A stretch of DNA of 64,000 nucleotides from an uncultured Planctomycetota bacterium (GCA_963823665.1 CAWGMQ010000003.1:832001-896000), one strand, 5' to 3'; counted from the stretch's first letter, positions 14,385 to 30,037 are shown. Program-made: numbers and translations. Notes: a model not told the origin generated them from the sequence alone.

Positions 14385-16034
14385 AGGCTGTCATCTTTTG
14401 GCCGCGTTGCGGTAACTCGGCCGTTGGGCCTAGTCGGCTGTGATTCACCGCTTGGTCGCTCGGTTAGTGCCGCCGATTCACGCCAGTTCTCCAATAGCCC
14501 AGCCGTTGACGCAAACGCGCTTTCCTATTTTGTCCCTTTTTTGCAAAGTACCGCTCATTCCGCCAGTTTGCCCATCGCTGGGCGCAGTCTCCCTGCGACA
14601 ACCAGGTTGTGAGCAATTGCAAACAACAATGCGACGGCGCGGCAACGCGGTTGGCCACGCACGGGCATAAACCAGAATCCTCGATTGCGAGCCTGGGCGT
14701 TGACCCACTCGGCTGTTTGGCCTCGCAGCCGGTAGATCAGCTTCGCGGCCTCGGTCCCCATTCGGATCCGCCAAGCGGCAACCGCTTCGCTGTCGCCCTT
14801 CTTTGCGGTGTAGGGATCTTCTCCATTTGCCTGTTTCTTTTTCTCGTCTCTGATCGGCCCGTATACGATGCAGCCGCGTTGGGCCGCCTGATCGATCGAG
14901 TCCTTGGTCGTGAAGCCACCGTCAACCAATGCCTCATCCGGAATTCGTTCGTAACGCTCCTCCAACTGGTCGAGCATGGGCGGAAGTTCTTCGCCATCGT
15001 TCCCTGCGTTGGTCACCTCCACACCCACAATCACACCGCTTTCGGTGTCTGTTGTGAATTGAACGTTATATCCCGGCCGGAATCCTCCGTCTGGAAACTT
15101 CATGATCCTCGCGTCGGGGTCGGTGGTCGAAGCACGCGCTTCCCGCCCCTTGCGGCCGTAGGACTCGTCACGTTCGCGTTGCAGCTCCTCGCACTGCCGC
15201 ATCGCTTCTTCGATCCGTTGCTGTCGCTTGTTGGCGGCACGCTCCCGCGCCGCTCGCTGCCGTCGAGTCAGCTCTGCTGTGTCCTCCTCGGCCAGTTTCT
15301 TCAGCGCCTCAACCTGCTCCTTCGCCGCTTTCAGGCACTCCTCCAGGCTACCGCGACGACGAAACGAGCTCTTGCCCGCGCTGGCACGCACTCTCATTCC
15401 GTCCTGAGCGACCCGGTCCATTTTCACCAACCCGGCATGGAGCAGGGTGCCCACGATCTGCGTGAGCAGTTCGTTCAACTTCTCGCCCCCACAAGCGAGG
15501 AAGTGGGACAACATGCTGTGGTTGACGGTTACGCCGCCGCACAGCCACTGGTACGGCAGACTCCCTTGGTTCTTTTCGCACAGCCGTTCGATTTCACGGG
15601 CGCTGCCGACTCCCTTCAATGTGGCGAAAACCCGCAATCCGACCAGCAAGCGCGGGTCGGTGGCATCTCGGCCGACATGTCGCTCGACGGCCTTGATCTC
15701 GCCGAGCCAGGCTTTCAGATCGAGCTTGCAGACCGCCGCCCAGACGACCCGGGCCGGATGGTCGGCCTCGAGCAATTCATCGAGCGATGCCCAGCGCATC
15801 TCGATCTGGTCGCGTACGGGACACCGCAGCCGCGGCTTGCCAGTTGGCATCGACTGGGCAGCCTGGGCGGGAGAGGGCTGATCGGGCAAGTCTTCTGGGC
15901 TAAAGAGAGGAAGTGTCATGACGCTCGTCCTGCAACACCGGGGCTGCGTGGGGCTCATGCGGCGGACTACATGCATGGTATTAGAACGTGAACACTATAC
16001 AAAATCAACCCCAACGCCGAAAAAATCACAGCCT
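14385..16034 (-). mobile_element. IS1182-family insertion sequence (1650 bp)
   Basis: Imperfect terminal inverted repeats AGGCTGTCATCTTTT and AAAAATCACAGCCT; CGGAG duplicated at 14380-14384 and 16035-16039. Confidence 0.8.
14555..15919 (-). CDS. IS1182 family DDE transposase
   Basis: DUF772-like N-terminus (DHPARVVW, SAREIERLC, YQWLCGG); AQDGMRVRASAG, STTDPDARIMK, GYNVQ, LVDGGF and YRLRGQTAEWV motifs. Confidence 0.92.
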   Translation of the reverse strand: MTLPLFSPEDLPDQPSPAQAAQSMPTGKPRLRCPVRDQIEMRWASLDELLEADHPARVVWAAVCKLDLKAWLGEIKAVERHVGRDATDPRLLVGLRVFATLKGVGSAREIERLCEKNQGSLPYQWLCGGVTVNHSMLSHFLACGGEKLNELLTQIVGTLLHAGLVKMDRVAQDGMRVRASAGKSSFRRRGSLEECLKAAKEQVEALKKLAEEDTAELTRRQRAARERAANKRQQRIEEAMRQCEELQRERDESYGRKGREARASTTDPDARIMKFPDGGFRPGYNVQFTTDTESGVIVGVEVTNAGNDGEELPPMLDQLEERYERIPDEALVDGGFTTKDSIDQAAQRGCIVYGPIRDEKKKQANGEDPYTAKKGDSEAVAAWRIRMGTEAAKLIYRLRGQTAEWVNAQARNRGFWFMPVRGQPRCRAVALLFAIAHNLVVAGRLRPAMGKLAE

Positions 16035-19329: not shown

Positions 19330-19911
19330 ATGATGAAGAAACTCGGATTCGCAGCCGCTCTCGCCGTCGCGGCGACGCTCGTCATCGGAGCGCCGGCGAT
19401 GGCCCAGACCGCCAAGAAGAAGCAGCAGCGCATCAGCCCGCACGAGACGATCACGGAGACGATTGACGGTAACGAGGTGAAGCTCGTCTACGGGCGCCCA
19501 TACACCAAGAAACCTGGGACCGACGAGGTCCGCAAAATTTGGGGCGGCCTGGTCCCGTACGGCAAGGTCTGGCGGACTGGCGCTGACGAAGCGACCCTGC
19601 TCACGACCAAGGAGCCGATCGAGATCGGCGGCTACTCACTCGCCGCCGGCACGTATTCACTGTTCACCGTCCCTAACGAGGACGGCACCGCCAAGCTCAT
19701 CATCAACAAGAAGACCGGGCAGTGGGGCGTCCCCTATAAAGAAGAGTCCGAGAAGGCCAACGAGCTGGCGCGGGTGGACCTCAAGAAGTCGGACCTCGAT
19801 AAGGACGTTGACCAGTTCACGATGGCGATCGAGAAGGAGGACGGCGGGGGTAAGCTCAAAATGTGTTGGGAGAAAACGGAGTACTCGATCAAGTTCACCG
19901 TGAAGAAATGA
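19330..19911 (+). CDS. DUF2911 domain exported protein
   Basis: Signal peptide (AMA-Q); YGRP, IWGGLVPYGKVWRTGADEAT, AGTYSLFTVP and QWG motifs; GGAG RBS. Confidence 0.9.
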   Translation: MMKKLGFAAALAVAATLVIGAPAMAQTAKKKQQRISPHETITETIDGNEVKLVYGRPYTKKPGTDEVRKIWGGLVPYGKVWRTGADEATLLTTKEPIEIGGYSLAAGTYSLFTVPNEDGTAKLIINKKTGQWGVPYKEESEKANELARVDLKKSDLDKDVDQFTMAIEKEDGGGKLKMCWEKTEYSIKFTVKK

Positions 19912-19953
19912 GGCCGAAAGGCCGCGTGCTCACACTGATTTCCATCGCGGCCC

Positions 19954-22491
19954 ATGCGGTCGCGATGGATTCTTCAACTCCGGGGCTCGCCCATGCTTGC
20001 ACCACGACTCTCCGGCGGCTCGAAACGGCTCGTTCCGCTCGTCCTGGCCGGAGCCTTGCTGGCCGGCCCGATTTCCAGCGGCCGCGGCGCGGAGCCGATG
20101 ACCGCCCAGGAAACGCTACGCGAGCTGCGCGGGTTTCGCGAGCTGGGGAGCGTCTTGTACGTGGCCGCACACCCCGACGATGAGAACACCCAGCTCATCG
20201 CTTACCTGGCGCACGGGCGCTCCTACCGCACAGCCTACCTCTCGCTCACGCGGGGCGACGGCGGCCAGAACGTGATCGGCCCCGAGTTTTTCGAGGAGCT
20301 GGGAGTGATCCGCACCCAGGAACTGCTCGCCGCGCACCGCCTGGACGGCGGCCGGCAGTTCTTTACCCGCGCTGTCGACTTCGGCTTCTCGAAGAATTCC
20401 GCCGAGACGCTTCGAATCTGGGACCGGAAGGCGGTGGTCTCCGACATCGTGCGGGTGATCCGGACTTTTCGGCCCGACCTGATCATCACGCGCTTCTCAC
20501 CCCAGGGGGGCGGGCATGGACACCACACAGCGTCCGCGATCCTGGCGGTCGAGGCATTCAAGCTCGCGGGCGACCCCACGGCGTTCCCCGATCAGATCGG
20601 CGAGCTCGCCGCGTGGCAGCCCAAGCGAATTCTTCAGGACGGCGGCGGACCCGGCGGCCGGGGCGGCGGCGGGTCGGGATCGCTCCGCGTCGAGATCGGC
20701 GGGGATGACCCGGTTTCCGGCGAGCCGCTCGGGACGATTGCCGGGCGCAGCCGGGCCATGCACAAGAGCCAGGGCTTCGGCGACTTCGCCGGCCGCGGCG
20801 GGGGTGGCGGTCCCCGCACCGGCTCGTTCACGCTCCTGGCCGGCGAGCCCGCGACCAACGGCATCATGGACGGCGTCGACACGACCTGGGCCCGTGTGCC
20901 AGGCGGGGCGCCTGTCGCAAAGCTGGCCGACGAGGCGGTCGCGCAGTTCGACTTGAAAGACCCTGCCGCTAGCGTGCCGCGTCTGGTGGCGATCCGCGCG
21001 CGGCTGGCTTCGCTCCCCGTCGACCCCGTCGTGGCCGAGAAGCGGCGCCAGCTCGACCGGGCGATCCAGGGCTGCCTCGGACTCGTGGTCGAAACGACCG
21101 TCCCCCGAGCCGAAGCCGTGCCGGGCGAGAAGCTGCACCTTCAGCATCGGGCGACGGTCGCGGCGAGTGTCCCCGTCCGCTGGTTGTCGGTGTCTTATCC
21201 GCTCACGGGCCGATCAATCGACGTGCCGATCGAGCTGACAGCCGGCCGCCCCGCCACCCGCGACGTGGACCAGACGCTGCCGGCCGACTCGCCGCTTGGC
21301 CAGCCGTACTGGCTGCGCGCGGAGCACACTGTCGGCCTCTTCAAGGTCGACCCCGCCACGTTGATCGGACGCCCCGAGAACCCGCCGGCATTCCCGATCG
21401 AACACCGATTCCAGGTCGGCGATCAGACTCTTGAGATCGCCGACGTCGCTGCTGGAGCCGCAGAGCAGGGACAGCCGGCCCGGCGGCTCGAAGTCATCGC
21501 GCCCGTAGCGCTGCGGTTCGTCTCGGAGGTGCGACTCTTCGCCCCGGGGTCGGAGCGTCGCGTCGACGTCGAGGTGACGGCCGCGCGCGACGGCGCGGCG
21601 GGCCGGCTCGACCTCCAGGCGCCCAGTGGTTGGACGGTCACGCCCGCGTCACAGCCGTTCCGGCTCGCGTCGGCCGGCGACCACGCGCTCTTGGCGTTCA
21701 CCGTCAAAGCCCCGTCCGAAACGGGTACGGCCACACTCGCGGCCGAGGCTCGCGTGGGCGATCGGACCTGGAACACCGGCAAGGTCGTGATCCGGCACCA
21801 GCACATCCCCGTCCAGTTACTCCAGCCGGCCGCGCGACTGAAGGCCGTCGCCCTCGACCTCTCGATCAAGGGCCGCCGCGTCGGGTATGTCTCCGGCGCC
21901 GGCGACCGGGTGGCCGAGAGCCTCGCGGAAATGGGCTACCAGGTCACGCCGCTGGCCGGAGCGGATCTCACCCCCGATAAGCTCGGCAATCTCGACGCCG
22001 TCGTGATCGGCGTCCGCGCCTACAACGTGCGCACGGACCTCGACGCCGCCCTGCCGGCGCTGTTCGCCTACGTCGAGGGGGGCGGGACGGTGGTCGCCCA
22101 GTACAACCGGCCGAACGAGCTCAAGACGAACCGGCTCGCCCCCTACGACCTGCGGCTATCTGGCGCCCGCGTTACCGACGAAACGGCGCCGGTTGCCTTT
22201 CTCGCACCCGACCACCCCGTGCTCACGACGCCCAACAAGGTCAGCCAGACCGACATGGAAGGCTGGGTGCAGGAGCGTGGTATTTACTTCCCGGCGCAAT
22301 GGGACTCGCACTTCACTCCGATCCTCGCATCGGGCGACCCGGGCGAGACGCCGCTCAAGGGAGGCCTGCTCGTGGCGAAGCATGGCCGGGGCCACTTCGT
22401 CTATACCGGGCTCGTCTTCTTCCGGCAATTGCCCGCCGGAGTCCCCGGGGCCTACCGGCTCTTCGCCAATCTGGTCTCGCTCGGCAAATGA
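19954..22491 (+). CDS. Large exported PIG-L/LmbE family deacetylase with C-terminal Ig-like and GATase-like domains
   Basis: Signal peptide; AAHPDDE, LTRGDGGQN, RTQELLAA, DFGFSK and GHGHH motifs; C-terminal GWVQERG and GAYRLFANL; alternative start at 19993. Confidence 0.9.
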   Translation: MRSRWILQLRGSPMLAPRLSGGSKRLVPLVLAGALLAGPISSGRGAEPMTAQETLRELRGFRELGSVLYVAAHPDDENTQLIAYLAHGRSYRTAYLSLTRGDGGQNVIGPEFFEELGVIRTQELLAAHRLDGGRQFFTRAVDFGFSKNSAETLRIWDRKAVVSDIVRVIRTFRPDLIITRFSPQGGGHGHHTASAILAVEAFKLAGDPTAFPDQIGELAAWQPKRILQDGGGPGGRGGGGSGSLRVEIGGDDPVSGEPLGTIAGRSRAMHKSQGFGDFAGRGGGGGPRTGSFTLLAGEPATNGIMDGVDTTWARVPGGAPVAKLADEAVAQFDLKDPAASVPRLVAIRARLASLPVDPVVAEKRRQLDRAIQGCLGLVVETTVPRAEAVPGEKLHLQHRATVAASVPVRWLSVSYPLTGRSIDVPIELTAGRPATRDVDQTLPADSPLGQPYWLRAEHTVGLFKVDPATLIGRPENPPAFPIEHRFQVGDQTLEIADVAAGAAEQGQPARRLEVIAPVALRFVSEVRLFAPGSERRVDVEVTAARDGAAGRLDLQAPSGWTVTPASQPFRLASAGDHALLAFTVKAPSETGTATLAAEARVGDRTWNTGKVVIRHQHIPVQLLQPAARLKAVALDLSIKGRRVGYVSGAGDRVAESLAEMGYQVTPLAGADLTPDKLGNLDAVVIGVRAYNVRTDLDAALPALFAYVEGGGTVVAQYNRPNELKTNRLAPYDLRLSGARVTDETAPVAFLAPDHPVLTTPNKVSQTDMEGWVQERGIYFPAQWDSHFTPILASGDPGETPLKGGLLVAKHGRGHFVYTGLVFFRQLPAGVPGAYRLFANLVSLGK

Positions 22492-22670
22492 CCATCCGGG
22501 ACGACGATCGAGCCGGTCCGCCGCACCCGAGCGGCTGCGCGGAGGAACCGCCGGACGGGGCGACTGGCCTGCCCTGGCCGAGGACGTGGCCGGGCGTTTA
22601 CGCGCTGGTGCTCATCTGCTTCGTCGCATGGGTGGTCTTGCTCGTCGTGCTAGAGCGGAGCTATCCATGA
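22488..22670 (+). CDS. Small single-pass membrane protein, probable symporter accessory subunit
   Basis: ATGA overlaps at both ends; TWPGVYALVLICFVAWVVLLVVL transmembrane segment. Confidence 0.7.
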   Translation: MTIRDDDRAGPPHPSGCAEEPPDGATGLPWPRTWPGVYALVLICFVAWVVLLVVLERSYP

Positions 22671-24382
22671 CTCTGCTCGACTTCGTGGTGCTCGCCGGTA
22701 GCATGGTCGGGATCGCGGCCCTCGGCGTCTGGCAGACACGCGGGCGGCAGGAGCTGAGCTATTACCTGAAGGGCGACCGGCGCACCGGCTGGGCCGCCAT
22801 CGGCATCTCGGTCATGGCGACGCAGGCAAGCGCAGTGACGTTCCTCTCGATGCCCGGCCAGGGGTACCAGGACGGCCTGGGATTCGTTCAAAACTACTTT
22901 GGCGCCCCGCTCGCCCTGATCATCATCGCGGCGGTGTTCTTACCGATGTATCGCCGGCTGAAGGTGTACACGGCGTACGAGTACCTCGGGCGCCGGTTCG
23001 ACGCCAAGACCCGGCTTCTGGGCGCAGGCCTTTTTCTCCTCCAGCGCGGCTTGCAAGCGGGGATCACGGTGTACGCCCCCGCGATCATCCTCTCGACGGT
23101 GCTGCACTGGCGCACCGACGCCACGATCCTGCTCTCCGGGCTGGTCGTGATCGCCTACACGGCGGCGGGCGGCAGCCAGGCAGTGAACGTGACGCAGAAG
23201 TACCAGCTCGGCGTGATTTTCTGCGGGATGCTGGCAGCCTTCATCGTCCTGCTGCGCCGGTTGCCACCCGGCGTCGGGTTCGACGACGCCTTGGCCTTGG
23301 CCGGCGGCTTCGGTAAGTTAAACGGGGTCGATTTCTCGGTCGACGCGAGCCGGCGTTACACGTTCTGGTCGGGGCTGCTGGGAGGTCTTTTTCTGGCGCT
23401 GTCGTACTTCGGCACCGATCAGTCTCAGGTCCAGCGCTATCTGTCCGGAACATCGCTCCGCGAGAGCCGGCTCGGCCTGATGTTCAACGCCGTGCTAAAG
23501 ATTCCCATGCAGTTTTTTATCCTGCTCCTGGGGACGATGGTGTTCGTCTTCTACCAGTTCGAGCCGTCGCCGATTTACTTCAACCGCGTGGCCTGGGAGC
23601 GCGGGCTAAAGCGCGATCCGGACGGCCGGCTCCGGTCGCTCGAGCAGCACTTTGGAGAGCTTCACACCGAGAAGCGGCGCGCCGTCCTGGACTGGCTCCA
23701 TGCCCGCGAGAGCGGCGACCGCTCGGCCGAGGCTGCGGCGCGAATTCGGGCCCTGTCCGCGCACGATCGAAGTCAGGCCGCGCGGGCCGAGGCCAGGGCG
23801 GCCCTGGAATCGTTCACCTCGAGCGGCAAAGCTCCGGATACCGATTACGTGTTCATCAGCTTCATCCTCGGCCATCTCCCACATGGGATGATCGGTCTCT
23901 TGATCGCCGCGTTCTTCGGCGCCACGCTCTCGTCGAAGGCCGCCGAGCTGAACGCGCTGGCGTCGACAACGACGGTCGATTTCTACCGGCACATCGTCGT
24001 GCGCCAGGCGAGCGACGCACATTACGTAGGCGCCACGCGCTGGTTCACCGTGATGTGGGGGGCGATCGCGGTCGGCTTCGCGCTCTTCGCCAGCCTGGCG
24101 GAGAACCTGATCCAGGCGGTGAACATCGTGGCCTCGATCTTCTACGGCGTGGTCCTCGGCCTGTTCATCGTCGCGTTTTTCCTGCGGCAGGTGCACGGGA
24201 CCGCCGTCTTCTGGGCGGCGATCGCGGCGCAGCTCCTGGTGTTCGTGCTCTTCGCCACCCTGGAGATCAGCTACCTGTGGTATAACCTGATCGGCTGTGC
24301 GGCCTGCATGGGGTTCAGCCTCGCGCTGCAGGCGGCGATCGGCCCCGGCCCGTCCGCCGCGGAGGCGCCCGAGAACCCATGA
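22667..24382 (+). CDS. Sodium:solute symporter family protein
   Basis: SVMATQASAVTFLS, TAYEYLGRRF, YFGTDQSQVQRYL and ELNALASTTTVDFY motifs; many TM helices. Confidence 0.93.
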   Translation: MTLLDFVVLAGSMVGIAALGVWQTRGRQELSYYLKGDRRTGWAAIGISVMATQASAVTFLSMPGQGYQDGLGFVQNYFGAPLALIIIAAVFLPMYRRLKVYTAYEYLGRRFDAKTRLLGAGLFLLQRGLQAGITVYAPAIILSTVLHWRTDATILLSGLVVIAYTAAGGSQAVNVTQKYQLGVIFCGMLAAFIVLLRRLPPGVGFDDALALAGGFGKLNGVDFSVDASRRYTFWSGLLGGLFLALSYFGTDQSQVQRYLSGTSLRESRLGLMFNAVLKIPMQFFILLLGTMVFVFYQFEPSPIYFNRVAWERGLKRDPDGRLRSLEQHFGELHTEKRRAVLDWLHARESGDRSAEAAARIRALSAHDRSQAARAEARAALESFTSSGKAPDTDYVFISFILGHLPHGMIGLLIAAFFGATLSSKAAELNALASTTTVDFYRHIVVRQASDAHYVGATRWFTVMWGAIAVGFALFASLAENLIQAVNIVASIFYGVVLGLFIVAFFLRQVHGTAVFWAAIAAQLLVFVLFATLEISYLWYNLIGCAACMGFSLALQAAIGPGPSAAEAPENP

Positions 24383-25167
24383 ACGCACAAGTGACGACCA
24401 CTCCCGTCATCTGCTTCGGCCAGCAGCCATGCGGCTTCTTCCCGCGGCGCTATCTCTACGCCAAGATCGCCACGGCACGGCGGCTTCAGGCGGAGCTCGG
24501 CGGCGAGGTCGTCTTCTTCTGCCATGACAGCGACCACGACTTCCGCGAGACCCGCACCACTTTGCGCCACCGCAAGACGGGCGAGCCGCTCCAGCTCAAT
24601 TTCGCCTTCGACAACCAGGTGCAGCGGAAGTTCTCGCCGCTGTACTTGAAGCGGGTGCGCGCCGACTGGCACGCCCGCACCGCTCTGCAGATTCGACCCT
24701 ACGTCGACCCCCGGTGCGAAGACGCATTCCGCGCCGTCGAATCTCGATTTGTCGCCGATTTCTGCATCGAGATGTACCGAAGGATGGGCCTGCTCGAGGG
24801 CATTCGCGTCGCGCGCTCGTGCGAAGCGTCCTTTCGCAGCGCGGCGTGCGAGGTGGAAGACTTCTACGTCGACGTGCCGTACGAAGGCGAGGTCGTGCGG
24901 GCCCGGCCCGTCGATGGCCGGCTCAGGCTTTACAAGGGGGGTGATCAGTATGTGGACCTTCCGGACGTGAAGTTTACACGTGAGCAGATCAGCCCGACGC
25001 GCGACACCCGGCTGCGCTGGATGCAGTCGGTGATCCGGTGCACCCACTACGTAGCAGGAGCCAGCGAGCAGAGTTATCTTCGCAAGGAGGACGCGCCGGA
25101 GATCACTTACGTCGTTCGCGACACCATCGATCGGCCCGAGGAAGCCTATGTCGAAGTCTCATCCTGA
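24379..25167 (+). CDS. Compact BshC-like protein (putative ligase), 262 aa
   Basis: GQQ...LYAKI, VVFF.HDSDHDFRE and ISP...R..MQ....HYVAGASEQSY correspond to the BshC motifs GQQ, EDHD, SPNxxxRP..Q and GPGE..Y; directly upstream of bshB1 and bshA. Confidence 0.65.
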   Translation: MNAQVTTTPVICFGQQPCGFFPRRYLYAKIATARRLQAELGGEVVFFCHDSDHDFRETRTTLRHRKTGEPLQLNFAFDNQVQRKFSPLYLKRVRADWHARTALQIRPYVDPRCEDAFRAVESRFVADFCIEMYRRMGLLEGIRVARSCEASFRSAACEVEDFYVDVPYEGEVVRARPVDGRLRLYKGGDQYVDLPDVKFTREQISPTRDTRLRWMQSVIRCTHYVAGASEQSYLRKEDAPEITYVVRDTIDRPEEAYVEVSS

Positions 25168-25876
25168 GCTGGGACCCCTCGTGGCCTTTGGCGCCCATCC
25201 CGACGACGTCGAGCTCGGCTGCGGCGCGGTGGTGGCTCTGGAGGCCCGCGCCGGGCGGCCCGCCCATGTGATTGTCTGCTCGCGTGGCGAGTCAGCCACC
25301 CACGGCACGCCCGATGAGCGCATCCGCGAGTGCCAGACCGCGGCGAAGCTGCTGGGGGCATCGCTCGAGCTGATCGAGCTCGACGGCGACGCCCACCTCG
25401 AACTCAAGGCCGCCCACGCGATCCGGCTCGCCGGGGTGATCCGGCGGTTGCGGCCGGCGGTGGTCCTGGCGCCCTCTCTCGTCGAGAACCAGCATCCGGA
25501 CCACTCCCGGCTGGGGCGCCTGGTGCGCGACGCCGCCCGCATCGCCCGCTACGGCGGAGTTGCCGAACTGCGCGACCTGGCCCCGCACTCGATCGAGCTG
25601 CTCTTCTATTATGCACTGGCGCCGGGCGCCGAGCCTCTCGATGTGACCCCGGTCTTGGTCGACGTCTCGGCGCCCGAGGTCCTGGCTGCGTGGAGCGCCG
25701 CGATGAAGGCGCACACGACGCAGGTGAAGGCCCGACCCTACGTCGAAATGCAACAGACGCGAGCCCGCGTGAATGGGCTGCGGGCCGGCACCGGCCACGC
25801 GATCGCCCTCTACCCCAACGACCCTCCCGTCGTCGACTCGCTGGCGCGGCTGGGCCGCAGCACGAACCGGTTCTGA
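25148..25876 (+). CDS. bshB1: Bacillithiol biosynthesis deacetylase BshB1-like (PIG-L family)
   Basis: FGAHPDDVELGCG, SRGESATHGTPDERIRE and QHPDH motifs; adjacent to bshA. Confidence 0.78.
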   Translation: MSKSHPELGPLVAFGAHPDDVELGCGAVVALEARAGRPAHVIVCSRGESATHGTPDERIRECQTAAKLLGASLELIELDGDAHLELKAAHAIRLAGVIRRLRPAVVLAPSLVENQHPDHSRLGRLVRDAARIARYGGVAELRDLAPHSIELLFYYALAPGAEPLDVTPVLVDVSAPEVLAAWSAAMKAHTTQVKARPYVEMQQTRARVNGLRAGTGHAIALYPNDPPVVDSLARLGRSTNRF

Positions 25877-25877
25877 C

Positions 25878-27014
25878 ATGCCCGCTTCTCGCCCTCTGCG
25901 CATCGGCATCACGTGTTACCCGTCGGTGGGCGGAAGCGGCATCCTCGCGACCTCGATGGGCATCGACCTTGCGCGGCGCGGCCACGATGTGCATTTCATC
26001 TGCTACGAGCGCCCGTTTCGCCTCCCGAGCGATCTACCCCGCGTCCACTTCCATCCGGTCGCCATCAACGACTACGGCCTGTTCAAGTACCCGGACTACA
26101 CGCTGCCGCTCTCGGTGAAGATGGCCGAGGTCAGTCGCGAATTCCGGCTTGACGTGCTCCACGTCCATTACGCCGTGCCGCACGCCACGGCCGCGTTCCT
26201 CGCGCGGTCAATGCTGCCGCCCAGGCTGCGCCCGAAGGTCGTCACGACGCTCCACGGCACCGACACCACGTTACTCGGCCGCGATCCGGGCTACGCGCCG
26301 GCCTTGCGATACGCACTGACGCGTTCCGACGCCGTGACCGCCGTGTCCGAGTTCCTTCACGCCGAAACTCGCCGTGTTCTCGGCGTCAAGCGGCCGATCG
26401 AGGTTGTGCACAACTTCTTCGATCCGCGCCCACCGCGCAGGACGCGCGAGGCGGTGCGGCATGAGCTCGGCGTGACCGATGAGCTGGTCATCCTGCACAG
26501 CTCGAACCTGCGCCCGGTGAAGCGGATCGACCTGTTGCTCGAAGCGGCCGCGCGGGTGCGCCCGCAAGAATCGTTCCGCCTGGTGATCCTTGCGGGGGAC
26601 GACTTCGCGCCATTCGCCGGCGAGATCCGCCGTCTTGGCCTCGAACGCCGGGTGAGCGTGCTCGAGCGCGTGCTCGACATCGAGGACTACCTCCAGGCCG
26701 CCGACGTCGGGCTGTTCACATCGGATTCCGAGAGCTTCTGCCTGAGCATCCTCGAAGCGATGTGGTTTGGCTGTCCGAGCGTGGCGACGCGAGTGGGAGG
26801 CATCCCCGAGGTGGTGGAAGACGGCGTCTCGGGCCTCCTCGTCACCGCTGGTGACGCGGACGAGCTCGCCCGCGCTCTGGAAAGCCTATTGTCGAACCCG
26901 CCGCGCCGCCTCGCCATGGGCGAAGAAGCCCGCCGCCGAGCGCACGAGCGATTCTCCGCCGACGTCATCGTGCCGCTCTACGAGGCGCTCTACCGACGGG
27001 TCTGCCACATCTGA
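25878..27014 (+). CDS. bshA: N-acetyl-alpha-D-glucosaminyl L-malate synthase BshA (GT4)
   Basis: IGITCYPSVGGSG, LFKYPDY, LHVHYAVPHA, TTLHGTD, HSSNLRPVKR and ESFCLSILEAM are BshA-type motifs. Confidence 0.9.
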   Translation: MPASRPLRIGITCYPSVGGSGILATSMGIDLARRGHDVHFICYERPFRLPSDLPRVHFHPVAINDYGLFKYPDYTLPLSVKMAEVSREFRLDVLHVHYAVPHATAAFLARSMLPPRLRPKVVTTLHGTDTTLLGRDPGYAPALRYALTRSDAVTAVSEFLHAETRRVLGVKRPIEVVHNFFDPRPPRRTREAVRHELGVTDELVILHSSNLRPVKRIDLLLEAAARVRPQESFRLVILAGDDFAPFAGEIRRLGLERRVSVLERVLDIEDYLQAADVGLFTSDSESFCLSILEAMWFGCPSVATRVGGIPEVVEDGVSGLLVTAGDADELARALESLLSNPPRRLAMGEEARRRAHERFSADVIVPLYEALYRRVCHI

Positions 27015-27120: not shown

Positions 27121-28110
27121 TCACCATTTCCACGCCGCTTGCAGCTCCGAATTGACAACGCACTCCGCCGGCCAGCGATCGCGCGAGAGCTCGACGATCG
27201 TCGACGCCGCCAGGTCGGCCATGTCGCTCATCGATCGAAGGTCGGTCCCGGCGATGTGCGGGCACAGGATGATATTCGGAACGCCGAGCAGCGGATTGTC
27301 CGGATCAGGCGGTTCCTTGCTCATGACGTCCAGGCCCGCGCCGGCAAGGTGGCCGGAGAGCACGGCTTCACGCAGGTCGCGTTCCACCACCAGGCCGCCG
27401 CGAGCGGTGTTGATCAGGTAAGAACCCGGCTTCATCTTCGCCAGGAACTCGCGGTTGACCATCCCACGGGTCGCATCGTTTAACGGCACGTGCAGGCTCA
27501 CGACGTCGGAGCAGGCGAGCAGGTCGTCGAGCGACATCCGCTTGATGCCATGCCGCTGGTCGAAGTCGGCGTCGACAATCGTATCGAAGGCAACCACGCG
27601 CACCTGGAATCCCGGCGCTCGCATCGCGACGGCGCGGCCGATGCGGCCCATTCCCACGAGGCCGAGCGTCATCCCACGCACCGGGCGAACCAGGGCGCGG
27701 TCCCAGCCTCCCGCGTGAATCACCCGGTCGTTGTGCACGATCCGGCGCGGCAGTGCCAGGAGCAATGCCCAGGTTTGCTCGGCGACGCTGTCCTGATTGG
27801 TGCCCGGAGTGATCGTCACCGCCACCTTGTGCGCCGAGGCGGCCTCGACGTCGATCAGGTCGTAGCCCACGCCGGTGCGGGCGATCACTCGCAACTTGGG
27901 GGCGAGCGGAAAGAGATCAGCCGACATGCGCTCTCCACCGGCGATCAAGGCATCAATCGTCCCCAGAAAGGGGTCAAGCTGCTCGCGCGTCAACGAGAAG
28001 TCGCCCTCGGGATCGACCACCTCGAACCCGGCGTCCGCCAGGATCTGGCGAAAGCGGCCTGGCTGTGATCGCAACAGATAAGGACCGATCAAAACTCTTG
28101 GCATGGTCAT
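27121..28110 (-). CDS. D-isomer-specific 2-hydroxyacid dehydrogenase (phosphoglycerate dehydrogenase-like)
   Basis: ARTGVGYD, GMGRIG, INTARG, GLDV..EP and PHIAG motifs. Confidence 0.92.
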   Translation of the reverse strand: MTMPRVLIGPYLLRSQPGRFRQILADAGFEVVDPEGDFSLTREQLDPFLGTIDALIAGGERMSADLFPLAPKLRVIARTGVGYDLIDVEAASAHKVAVTITPGTNQDSVAEQTWALLLALPRRIVHNDRVIHAGGWDRALVRPVRGMTLGLVGMGRIGRAVAMRAPGFQVRVVAFDTIVDADFDQRHGIKRMSLDDLLACSDVVSLHVPLNDATRGMVNREFLAKMKPGSYLINTARGGLVVERDLREAVLSGHLAGAGLDVMSKEPPDPDNPLLGVPNIILCPHIAGTDLRSMSDMADLAASTIVELSRDRWPAECVVNSELQAAWKW

Positions 28111-28546
28111 CTCGGTAGGAAGGAGGGTATGATCGGCCCAAATGGATGCTTCTCGACGAACGAGGGCGCCGATTTCTTGGCTCAAGGGCCGTCTTCGCCT
28201 TGCGTCGGGCCATTGCCCAACTTATTCTCATCGAAGCCGAAGGGCAACCTCGTTTCGCCGCCACCCTTCTTGTTGAGGCCTTCACGAGCCGTCCGATTTG
28301 AGCAGCGCGGCTTCCGTGATGAGACCGGGGGCGATCATGGCCGGGCAACGCCGCTCTTGACTGGTCCGAAATCCTGGCGACTATGGATTTAGGGGGGCAT
28401 CGTACGATCGAGACGAATTGGAGATTTCCGGGGCCCGTTCCGGCTGCGGGGTGTGGTAGACTTGTCCGAGGGAGCGCTGATAGCTTGCCGGCATTCGGTC
28501 AACCATCCTCGTTGGCAGATCCCGCCCTTGACGCAGAAAGCGCACT

Positions 28547-30037
28547 ATGGGGGTAATGAAGTTCCGCCTCCCTCCGAACGAGTCGCTAGGTGGCGTACCC
28601 GATTTTCGCAAGGCGTACATCACCGGCCTGGATCGGACTCCGGGCAGACTTGCCGTTGAGCTTCGCAACGGGGTGATGACCTGCGCTCGAGACTCGACGG
28701 AGAGCGGCCGTCTCTTTGTGCCCTGGCCGATCGCGGGGTTCGGCATGCCGCTTGTGGGCACGGCCACGCTGGCCGAGCGTGTGGCGCCTTACACGCTGGC
28801 CGTCGAGCTTGCCCGGGGTAAGCTCAACGATATCCGGAACCAGCTCGCCGACTGGCTGCAACTCGGGCTGCGATCGACTCCCGAGCTGGACCGTGCGATG
28901 GGCGCGGCGCAAAGAGCGTTCGTCGTGGCCGCAACCACGTCAGACCGGCCTGAAGAATGCGTGCGGGCGGCTCAGGCTTCGCTGGATGCTTCGTCTGCCG
29001 CGGGCGATTTGCTGATGAACGCCTACACGTCGCAAATCCTGCAAAGCCGTCTGTCGGCGACCTCCCGTCTGCCCACTCATTTCGGCTGCGTCATCGAGGA
29101 GACTCCGCAGAAAGGCCCGGGGTCGCTCGACTGGACGGGCTGCTTCAACATGGCTCAGGTAAGGATCTCCTGGAAGGACATCGCTCCCTCCGAAGGGCAA
29201 TATCGCTGGGATGCTCTGGACTCGGTCCTCTCCTGGTCGCGGAAGTCCGGGCTCGCCGTCGAGGTGGGCCCGCTCGTTGAATTCCGCTACGGCGCGTTAC
29301 CGGACTGGCTCTCGCTCTGGGACGGAGACTGCGAGACGATCAGCGGCATTCTCAGCGACTTCATCCAGCAGGCGGTGACCCGATACCGGGGCCGGGTGCC
29401 GCTCTGGCACCTGGTTCACCGTCCCGCCAGCTCCGACATCCTCGGCTTGACGGAGGAAGAGCAGATCCGGATCACCGCCCGTGCCATTCAGGTCGCTCGC
29501 CAGGCAGACCCCGGGGCGCAGCTTTCAATCGGCATCGACCGCCCCTGGGCCGACTGGATGGGCTCGAGCCACTTCCAGCTCGGCCCCTTGCACCTCTGCG
29601 ACTATCTGCTCCGGGCGGATCTTGGGCTTTCCGCCGTCGCAGTCGAGGTCGCGCCGGGATATTCCTCGCCGGGAAGCCACATGCGCGACCTCTTCGAATT
29701 CTCCAAGCTGCTCGATCTCTATTCGCTCTTGAACGTTCCCCTCTGTATCTGGATGGCACTCCCTTCGGCCACAGGACCGGACCCGTTGGCCGATCCCGCA
29801 GTGCACGTGGAGAAAGAGCAATGGCCAGGCTCGCTCGACGAAAACCTGCAAGCGGCGTGGGGAGCCAAGTGGCTTGCGCTCGCGGTCTCCAAGCCGTTCG
29901 TTCGCACCGCAACCTGGCTCGAGCGCAGCGACGCCATCCCGCATCTCTACCCCCATGCCGGATTGCTGCGACCCGACCGCACTCCCAAGCCGCTGCTCTC
30001 GTGGATGCGCATGATGCGCGAGCAGACGCTGGCATGA
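28547..30037 (+). CDS. Conserved planctomycete GH10-like TIM-barrel protein
   Basis: LAVELARGKLN, WKDIAPSEGQYRW, LPDWL, VTRYRG and GLLRPDRTPKP motifs; lacks the usual WDVVNE (reads WHLVHR). Confidence 0.75.
   Translation: MGVMKFRLPPNESLGGVPDFRKAYITGLDRTPGRLAVELRNGVMTCARDSTESGRLFVPWPIAGFGMPLVGTATLAERVAPYTLAVELARGKLNDIRNQLADWLQLGLRSTPELDRAMGAAQRAFVVAATTSDRPEECVRAAQASLDASSAAGDLLMNAYTSQILQSRLSATSRLPTHFGCVIEETPQKGPGSLDWTGCFNMAQVRISWKDIAPSEGQYRWDALDSVLSWSRKSGLAVEVGPLVEFRYGALPDWLSLWDGDCETISGILSDFIQQAVTRYRGRVPLWHLVHRPASSDILGLTEEEQIRITARAIQVARQADPGAQLSIGIDRPWADWMGSSHFQLGPLHLCDYLLRADLGLSAVAVEVAPGYSSPGSHMRDLFEFSKLLDLYSLLNVPLCIWMALPSATGPDPLADPAVHVEKEQWPGSLDENLQAAWGAKWLALAVSKPFVRTATWLERSDAIPHLYPHAGLLRPDRTPKPLLSWMRMMREQTLA

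Follow-up and report, generated by a model that had tools for sequence, protein, structure and literature searches.

A predicted bacillithiol operon with a half-size BshC homologue and a probable salvage arm in an uncultured planctomycete

Results

Gene content and organisation of the operon

The DNA analysed here, called the window throughout, is a stretch of 64,000 nucleotides from an uncultured Planctomycetota bacterium (GCA_963823665.1 CAWGMQ010000003.1:832001-896000; host genome G000, completeness 91.9%). At 19330..27014 it carries an operon that we read as a bacillithiol pathway whose ligase is half the usual size and to which a salvage arm probably belongs, a variant apparently undescribed in print. 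The original prediction, derived from the sequence without knowledge of its origin, had named seven co-oriented genes here, and all seven were found as open reading frames (ORFs) on the + strand (lengths in amino acids, aa):

19330..19911, +, DUF2911 protein, 193 aa (PF11138, E 2e-41)
19954..22491, +, exported long PIG-L/LmbE metallohydrolase, 845 aa, start possibly ATG 19993 (PF02585)
22488..22670, +, single-pass membrane protein, 60 aa, no family match
22667..24382, +, sodium:solute symporter (SSS), 571 aa (TIGR00813)
24379..25167, +, mini-BshC, 262 aa, BshC Rossmann core by predicted fold and profile
25148..25876, +, BshB-type cytoplasmic deacetylase, 242 aa, best family TIGR04001, below cut-off
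25878..27014, +, BshA, N-acetylglucosaminyl-L-malate synthase, 378 aa (TIGR03999)

The close joining of the genes was confirmed: the first two are 42 bp apart, the next three junctions are ATGA overlaps, the mini-BshC and BshB genes share 20 bp, and 1 bp separates the BshB gene from that for BshA; one of the ATGA overlaps couples the SSS gene translationally to the mini-BshC gene. Family scans upheld the proposed labels for BshA, the symporter and the PF11138 and PF02585 proteins, whereas the "BshB1" remained below its cut-off and the "BshC-like" protein had no family match at all. The latter label also overlooked the half-size form of the ligase, to which the standard family models are blind. 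A planctomycete host, as had been proposed, agrees with the nearest relatives of the 262-aa protein, which carry Isosphaeraceae or Planctomycetota titles (77-85% identity, the closest titled Isosphaeraceae) and are followed by Verrucomicrobiota.

A half-size homologue of BshC

The 262-aa protein matched no Pfam or NCBIfam family at E 0.05, PF10079 and TIGR03998 included, and a PF10079 match was absent from G000 and from five other mini-form carriers searched. Its kinship with BshC had to be recognised by fold comparison, because a sequence search against solved structures yielded no BshC and chance matches only. An AlphaFold2 model built from 96 alignment rows (predicted local distance difference test, pLDDT, 94) found its top structural match in B. 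subtilis BshC (4WBD; Z 20.1, root-mean-square deviation 3.0, 242/262 residues), the runner-up reaching Z 14.6, and Foldseek matched the model to BshC with E 5e-11. A PF10079 cluster ranked third (0.91) among the look-alikes of the protein in the Atlas. Profile comparison by hhalign with 22 canonical BshC copies was weak (E 7e-5 to 1.6e-3, probability 16-34%) and lined up GQQ, K, DHD..E, SP, LR, Q and T-Y-G-E-Y in mini-BshC, the alignment ending near canonical residue 364-390. With seven intermediate copies of 400-410 aa, taken from the Acidobacteriota sample described below, it reached E 5.8e-7 and a probability of 92%. The 262-aa protein is, with hardly any doubt, a homologue of BshC, and the intermediate forms, as judged by sequence, are a bridge between the canonical and the mini enzyme; the two that were scanned scored 84-94 bits with TIGR03998 (cut-off 265.8). 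The intermediate gene adjoins bshB in a group of genomes of that sample (L270:6679-7902, L273:6869-8071, L271-L280).

The mini form does not have the first ~80 residues of BshC, a portion of the middle insertion or the coiled coil at the C-terminus, and its model has no long C-terminal helices; in BshC this coiled coil dimerises the enzyme, according to the accessible text of PMC5790435. Near-invariant residues are GQQ, K, DxDHD, SP, R, Q and T-x-Y-x-x-G-x-x-E. Five cysteines (C12, C18, C129, C157 and C221) are each conserved in 88-95/96 rows, and the protein reads GQQPCG where BshC reads GQQ(A/V)GL. We found 6550 homologues of similar length, which among the 120 listed are mostly unnamed or "hypothetical". 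A broken BshC was ruled out: the length of the family is constant, and a search among longer proteins gave nine matches, none of them PF10079. Apparent fusions to BshB or SSS were dropped as evidence, as four of the six that were inspected look garbled by frameshifts and the two clean ones (P0277, P0278) each come from a single contig. Addition of cysteine would be the probable activity of mini-BshC.

BshA and BshB

BshA scored well above its family cut-off (TIGR03999, 404.6 bits, cut-off 273.7) and aligned to 3MBO with E 7e-92. The motifs GGSG, HYAxPH, TLHGTD and SNxRxxKR were invariant in 98/98 mini-operon copies and identical to those of the malate-using B. anthracis BshA; which of these residues contact malate is an assignment that we assume here. 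The BshB-like protein scored best with TIGR04001 (BshB1; 123.2 bits, under the cut-off of 182.5) and aligned to 2IXD, 6P2T and 1UAN. Its zinc motif HXDD+H, as given in the accessible text of PMC4101496, is kept as H17, D19, D20 and H119 in 105/105 copies, and the equivalent of Arg53 (R58) is likewise present in 105/105.

The envelope module

The 845-aa protein matched PF02585 with 59.8 bits (cut-off 28.2) and, weakly, a NEW3 domain. It comprises a zinc amidase domain (H73-P-D75-D76 and H191), two immunoglobulin-like (Ig-like) domains and a C-terminal alpha/beta domain, and the residues of its HXDD+H motif are invariant in 119 aligned rows. MshB was the best Foldseek match of its predicted model (pLDDT 95), and chitobiose deacetylases matched as well, while the scores with the Mca family TIGR03446 (45.4 bits, cut-off 277) and with TIGR04000 (30.4 bits, cut-off 195) were low and a sequence search found no relative among solved structures. 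The signal peptide postulated for this protein was corroborated by a hydrophobic N-terminal segment in 139/145 distinct homologues versus 70/1948 mature windows, scored by a simple hydropathy rule and not by a signal-peptide predictor. All characterised LmbE enzymes cleave N-acylglucosamine cores, as stated in the accessible text of PMC4101496, and the exported PIG-L protein is probably an amidase of N-acyl-glucosaminyl-malate.

The symporter passed TIGR00813 (207.5 bits, cut-off 184) and also PF00474. Its closest solved structures are SMCT1, SMVT, NIS and 5NV9, which are carriers of anions or carboxylates, ahead of glucose carriers, and this likeness fits an import of glucosaminyl-malate (GlcN-malate), for which the symporter is a likely candidate. 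Between the PIG-L and SSS genes, a small transmembrane ORF was present in 108/109 loci of the Planctomycetota-Verrucomicrobiota-Chlamydiota (PVC) type and in 13/13 Acidobacteriota-sample loci in which both genes were seen. The 60-aa protein of the window, which had no match in Pfam or NCBIfam scans, may be an accessory subunit of the symporter. The DUF2911 protein starts with a segment resembling a signal peptide, judged by eye, and may act as a periplasmic accessory or binding protein; an Atlas search gave no informative look-alike. Two divergent DUF2911 paralogues often stand in tandem upstream of the PIG-L gene (L008, L010, L113 and many others), with about 50-69% and 31-39% identity to the copy in the window.

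Conservation and distribution

Two sets of loci were compared, both biased toward close relatives. The first took the mini gene as its anchor (the best 80 among 565 genome relatives, counts restricted to loci with room) and showed SSS upstream in 80/80, PIG-L in 59/63, DUF2911 in 56/59, BshB in 71/72 and BshA in 67/67 loci, so that the order of the operon is conserved far beyond chance. The second was anchored on PIG-L (best 80 of 548 metagenome loci, some contigs being duplicated); among the 29 loci with at least 5.5 kb downstream, SSS was found in 29, the mini gene and BshA in 28 each and BshB in 27. DinB_2 transferases proved to be no marker of the mini form: G000 has 18, two carriers have none, and G290, which belongs to the phylum sample and lacks the mini gene, has two.

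Among the genomes sampled, the operon was found in 14/121 of the host family, in 0/300 other Planctomycetota and in 10/201 of the phylum Verrucomicrobiota, and is thus relevant to a minority of these phyla. These counts, together with a raised G+C content (0.66-0.71 in the operon, 0.57-0.66 in most other 2-kb windows), indicate that the operon is patchy and probably mobile.

The strongest functional evidence for the ligase is the complementary distribution of the mini form and canonical BshC. Eleven of the 201 Verrucomicrobiota genomes had BshA above the cut-off; ten of these carry the mini form, and the eleventh (G495), without it, is the sole PF10079 genome of the 201. In the host family, BshA was found in 15/121 genomes at E 1e-60, namely 13 mini carriers and G317 and G350, two genomes with bshB and bshA in which a search revealed no form of BshC (L286:9477-11473 in G317, L287:7055-9930 in G350). 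Just upstream of this gene pair, G350 has a gene for a 308-aa GNAT-domain protein (PF13480), which might provide a third means of acylating GlcN-malate. All 14 host-family genomes with the mini gene have PIG-L adjoining, and four further genomes have PIG-L only.

The linkage on which the original prediction had staked itself held up, as bsh genes are accompanied in three phyla by those for PIG-L, the small protein, SSS and DUF2911, both in the same genome and at the same locus. The Acidobacteriota sample comprised 151 genomes (the phylum of G423), of which 82 had the long PIG-L and 100 had PF10079 (both 77, PIG-L only 5, BshC only 23, neither 46); these counts include the unpublished genome G578, without which both were present in 76/81 PIG-L genomes. 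Of the five PIG-L genomes that lack PF10079, three have the mini form, with the genes arranged in another order, and the exported PIG-L is accompanied by a BshC-type gene in 80/82 genomes. Two loci (L219, L220) have the order bshC-bshB-bshA-PIG-L-SSS with a canonical bshC and DUF2911 upstream. In a quick PIG-L tree (no outgroup, 54 rows, every fifth PVC row, three "mini" labels coming from loci that end short of the mini gene), the mini-operon proteins nest inside the SSS-linked clade. In a quick symporter tree (no outgroup, 36 rows), the symporters of canonical bshC operons form the sister group of the mini-operon ones. A bshC gene near a ROK-TonB-dependent receptor-SSS-PIG-L-lyase cluster in L265-L267 was not counted as operon linkage, since mutL intervenes.

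An ArgH-paralogue lyase in amino-sugar contexts

A paralogue of argininosuccinate lyase (ArgH) recurs at L225:769-10205, L228, L231, L265-L267, L284, L297-L308 and L192-L194; examples of the lyase itself are L225:8667-10205 and, in Thalassospira, WP_245881426. In Acidobacteriota, Alphaproteobacteria and Bacillus it stands beside the PIG-L and SSS families, TonB receptors, NagC-like ROK regulators, which adjoin PIG-L relatives, and sugar kinases. The lyase subfamily was present in 16/151 genomes of the Acidobacteriota sample, all 16 of them PF10079-positive, and 15/16 genes adjoin bshC or a member of the PIG-L or SSS families discussed here: four in a ROK-TonB receptor-SSS-PIG-L-lyase arrangement, three in clusters that contain an amino-acid permease and run divergently to PIG-L, seven as immediate neighbours of the SSS family and one convergent with bshC. 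The sixteenth is beside none of them. A second ArgH was present in both lyase genomes checked; the host genome G000 has one ArgH-type gene.

Three of 24 distant PIG-L matches were opened for plasmid contexts. On the alphaproteobacterial plasmids of Thalassospira and Aminobacter, where none of the annotated neighbours is a bsh gene, a PIG-L relative without a signal segment is grouped with a sugar ABC importer and its companions, namely a ROK regulator, a PfkB kinase and an ArgH-like lyase; on a Bacillus plasmid the relative stands with ROK, ABC, a GlcNAc-kinase-like ATPase (GlcNAc, N-acetylglucosamine) and the lyase. At L269, a nagB gene (L269:10164-10925, glucosamine-6-phosphate deaminase) overlaps the PIG-L end in the order SSS-PIG-L-nagB, and a canonical bshC converges on it.

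Lyases of the fumarase-aspartase superfamily act on a 2-substituted succinate and set fumarate free, and glucosamine is required by amino-sugar kinases and by NagB. To our knowledge, GlcN-malate, the substrate of BshC, is the one nameable known compound that meets both requirements. The catabolic contexts thus point to GlcN-malate as the shared substrate of PIG-L and the symporter, and the ArgH paralogue is a candidate GlcN-malate lyase in a pathway of bacillithiol breakdown.

Thiol-related genes and surroundings of the operon

MshC and GshB were above cut-off in 0/5 carrier genomes each, so that neither mycothiol nor glutathione is evident as a rival thiol. A YpdA-like reductase gene, below cut-off, lies divergent from a canonical bshC in another genome (G697:C8:979507-981898).

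A scan of the operon for promoters and terminators performed no better than chance. About 3.4 kb upstream, the window contains a DDE transposase gene (14555-15976, -) in a part of lower G+C, which fits a mobile region. Downstream, a D-2-hydroxyacid dehydrogenase gene (27121-28185, -) is convergent with bshA, and a weak GH10-like gene (28547-30037, +) follows beyond it.

Discussion

We read the operon as one of bacillithiol synthesis combined with periplasmic cleavage and re-import of GlcN-malate, at a probability of about 0.6. The coupling of UDP-GlcNAc to L-malate is the established reaction of BshA. Given the observed family membership, BshA would very probably carry it out here, and the BshB-type enzyme would quite probably strip the acetyl group. 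The 262-aa stand-alone Rossmann core would then, as seems likely, perform the job of BshC and produce bacillithiol (Cys-GlcN-malate). In the periplasm, the PIG-L protein would probably yield GlcN-malate by cleaving the amide bond in bacillithiol, in the disulfide or S-conjugates of the latter, or in GlcNAc-malate, and the Na+ symporter and its small membrane partner would probably import this product for re-ligation. Elsewhere, the same uptake genes may supply the ArgH-paralogue lyase, whose expected products from GlcN-malate are glucosamine and fumarate. Import in our organism would serve salvage and not breakdown, because the host genome has only one ArgH-type gene. From the synthesis-plus-salvage system as originally predicted, the association with bsh genes has gained support, as has a GlcN-malate substrate through independent catabolic contexts, and the thiol identity of the product stays a prediction.

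Several observations weigh against this interpretation. At the position of BshB Arg109, the malate contact of the B. cereus enzyme, 105/105 mini-operon copies have Gln (Gln115), whereas Arg is present in 13/14 BshB copies beside longer BshC forms, and the accessible text of PMC4101496 reports a reduced activity of R109K on GlcNAc-malate. The conserved R196 (101/105 copies) might compensate for the lost arginine. Among the mini-form genomes searched, YpdA/Bdr was found in 0/7, BrxA/B in 0/5 and BrxC in 0/5. A low-molecular-weight thiol as product, as originally predicted, is questioned by the BshB substitution and the redox partners not found. The association of the genes is also incomplete: G633 and G645 have PIG-L with no BshA at E 1e-40, three host-family members carry a distant PIG-L with no BshC form or BshA, and PIG-L is missing from 4/63 mini loci with room, from 2/10 sampled Verrucomicrobiota operons (L291 and L025, the latter titled Horticoccus sp. 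23ND18S-11 and having the symporter and bsh genes) and from 23/100 PF10079 genomes of the Acidobacteriota sample. The Fisher P for the co-occurrence of PIG-L and PF10079 overstates it because the genomes are kin. The PIG-L and SSS proteins linked to the lyase fall into clades of their own with 35-44% identity, so that the substrate may differ between clades, and the symporters of bsh operons form one clade, so that the gene linkage may be a single ancient event that was later rearranged.

The same architecture could serve another product, if the ligase attaches a group different from cysteine or if the aglycone is not the same. The outer module would then recycle either an analogue of bacillithiol or a GlcN-malate amide that is no thiol, such as an osmolyte, metal ligand or signal. 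The Gln in BshB, the redox partners not found and the change from GQQ(A/V)GL to GQQPCG in a ligase with five conserved cysteines fit this explanation, which we nevertheless consider rather unlikely: the BshA motifs are those of a malate-using enzyme, the mini form substitutes canonical BshC one for one, and in the symporter tree the canonical bshC operons supply the sister group. Moreover, YpdA was found, below cut-off, in two of three canonical-BshC genomes and not found in the third, and T. thermophilus, taken as a control, has BshC and no Brx match. It is also conceivable that bacillithiol is the product of the bsh genes and that the substrate of the outer module is an amino sugar unrelated to it (GlcNAc, chitobiose or a sialic-acid-like acid), the module supplying glucosamine only or being linked by historical accident. 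The match of the PIG-L fold to chitobiose deacetylases, the NagB, ROK and kinase neighbours, which suit any amino sugar, the single clade of bsh-linked symporters and the alphaproteobacterial plasmids would agree with this. Such an explanation, however, leaves the fumarase-superfamily lyase unexplained, a non-housekeeping ArgH paralogue that recurs in three phyla, and the co-occurrence at genome level (80/82) persists where the genes are unlinked; with the translational coupling of symporter and ligase in addition, we regard it as clearly unlikely. Least of all do we expect the 262-aa protein to be a degenerate, non-catalytic remnant of BshC in an operon that ends at GlcN-malate or GlcNAc-malate. 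The dimerising coiled coil (PF24850 region) is indeed missing, and G317 and G350 keep bshB-bshA without a BshC form, but 6550 homologues of constant length with near-invariant motif residues, and the series of 400-410-aa intermediates that ties the mini form to the canonical enzyme, make decay very improbable.

Our literature search, which covered subscription journals poorly, found neither the operon nor a short BshC described, and no account of the uptake of bacillithiol or of a lyase for GlcN-malate; DUF2911 came up in one paper. Verrucomicrobia and Planctomycetes were named, in the accessible text of Hiras et al. 2018 (PMC6282198), as lineages without a documented or predicted low-molecular-weight thiol. 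As far as their accessible text indicates, this survey and the NmbA survey of 2025 (PMC12719100) both required a length similar to the query, and a half-size BshC fails in both for this reason; in the latter survey, canonical genes may be recorded for some PVC species. The accessible part of a 2018 review (PMC5790435) describes the BshC reaction as not reconstituted at that time and the import or export of bacillithiol as unclear. A natural BshC of 262 aa would show which parts of the enzyme are dispensable and offer an easier test enzyme for its reaction, and the genes described here are candidates for bacillithiol cleavage, uptake and breakdown and give DUF2911 a first context. If our interpretation is true, some Planctomycetota and Verrucomicrobiota possess a hidden thiol. 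Going further, we tentatively propose an undescribed bacillithiol economy, consisting of this thiol made by a minimal BshC, the PIG-L/symporter module as a first uptake-salvage system and the ArgH paralogue as a first breakdown route, also in scavenging-only bacteria; this broader picture is possible, at less than even odds.

Comparison with known systems

The periplasmic salvage of glutathione by gamma-glutamyl transpeptidase is well known. There, too, a thiol is cut outside the cytoplasm and the pieces are imported, as proposed here; the enzymes and the molecule are unrelated and the likeness is one of analogy only. The bacillithiol pathway of B. subtilis, and that of N-methyl-bacillithiol in Chlorobi/Bacteroidetes, resembles our operon in having a true BshA, an LmbE-type BshB and a third enzyme of BshC fold in a cluster. 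In contrast to it, the ligase here has 262 aa (versus ~540) and is below the cut-off of all families, BshB has Gln at Arg109, YpdA and Brx were not found, and the linked envelope module is absent from the published accounts as far as these were accessible.

The lyase linked to PIG-L and SSS passes TIGR00838, so that the fumarate-releasing elimination of argininosuccinate lyase and the fumarase-aspartase superfamily would be expected of it. It differs from argininosuccinate lyase as a second paralogue that scores best with PRK06705, below cut-off, and that lies in amino-sugar uptake clusters outside the window. With the Mca/Bca amidases and MshB of the LmbE superfamily, the PIG-L protein shares the HXDD+H motif, a fold best matched by MshB and the proposed cleavage of an amide that recycles a glucosaminide. 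Those enzymes are small and cytoplasmic, whereas the protein described here has 845 aa, is exported, carries Ig-like and alpha/beta domains and scores far under the Mca, MshB and BshB cut-offs. Compared with BshC (4WBD; PF10079, PF24850, TIGR03998), the mini form is shorter, has ~15% identity, a shortened middle insertion and conserved cysteines near the active-site motif, and shares with it the motifs and the Rossmann core.

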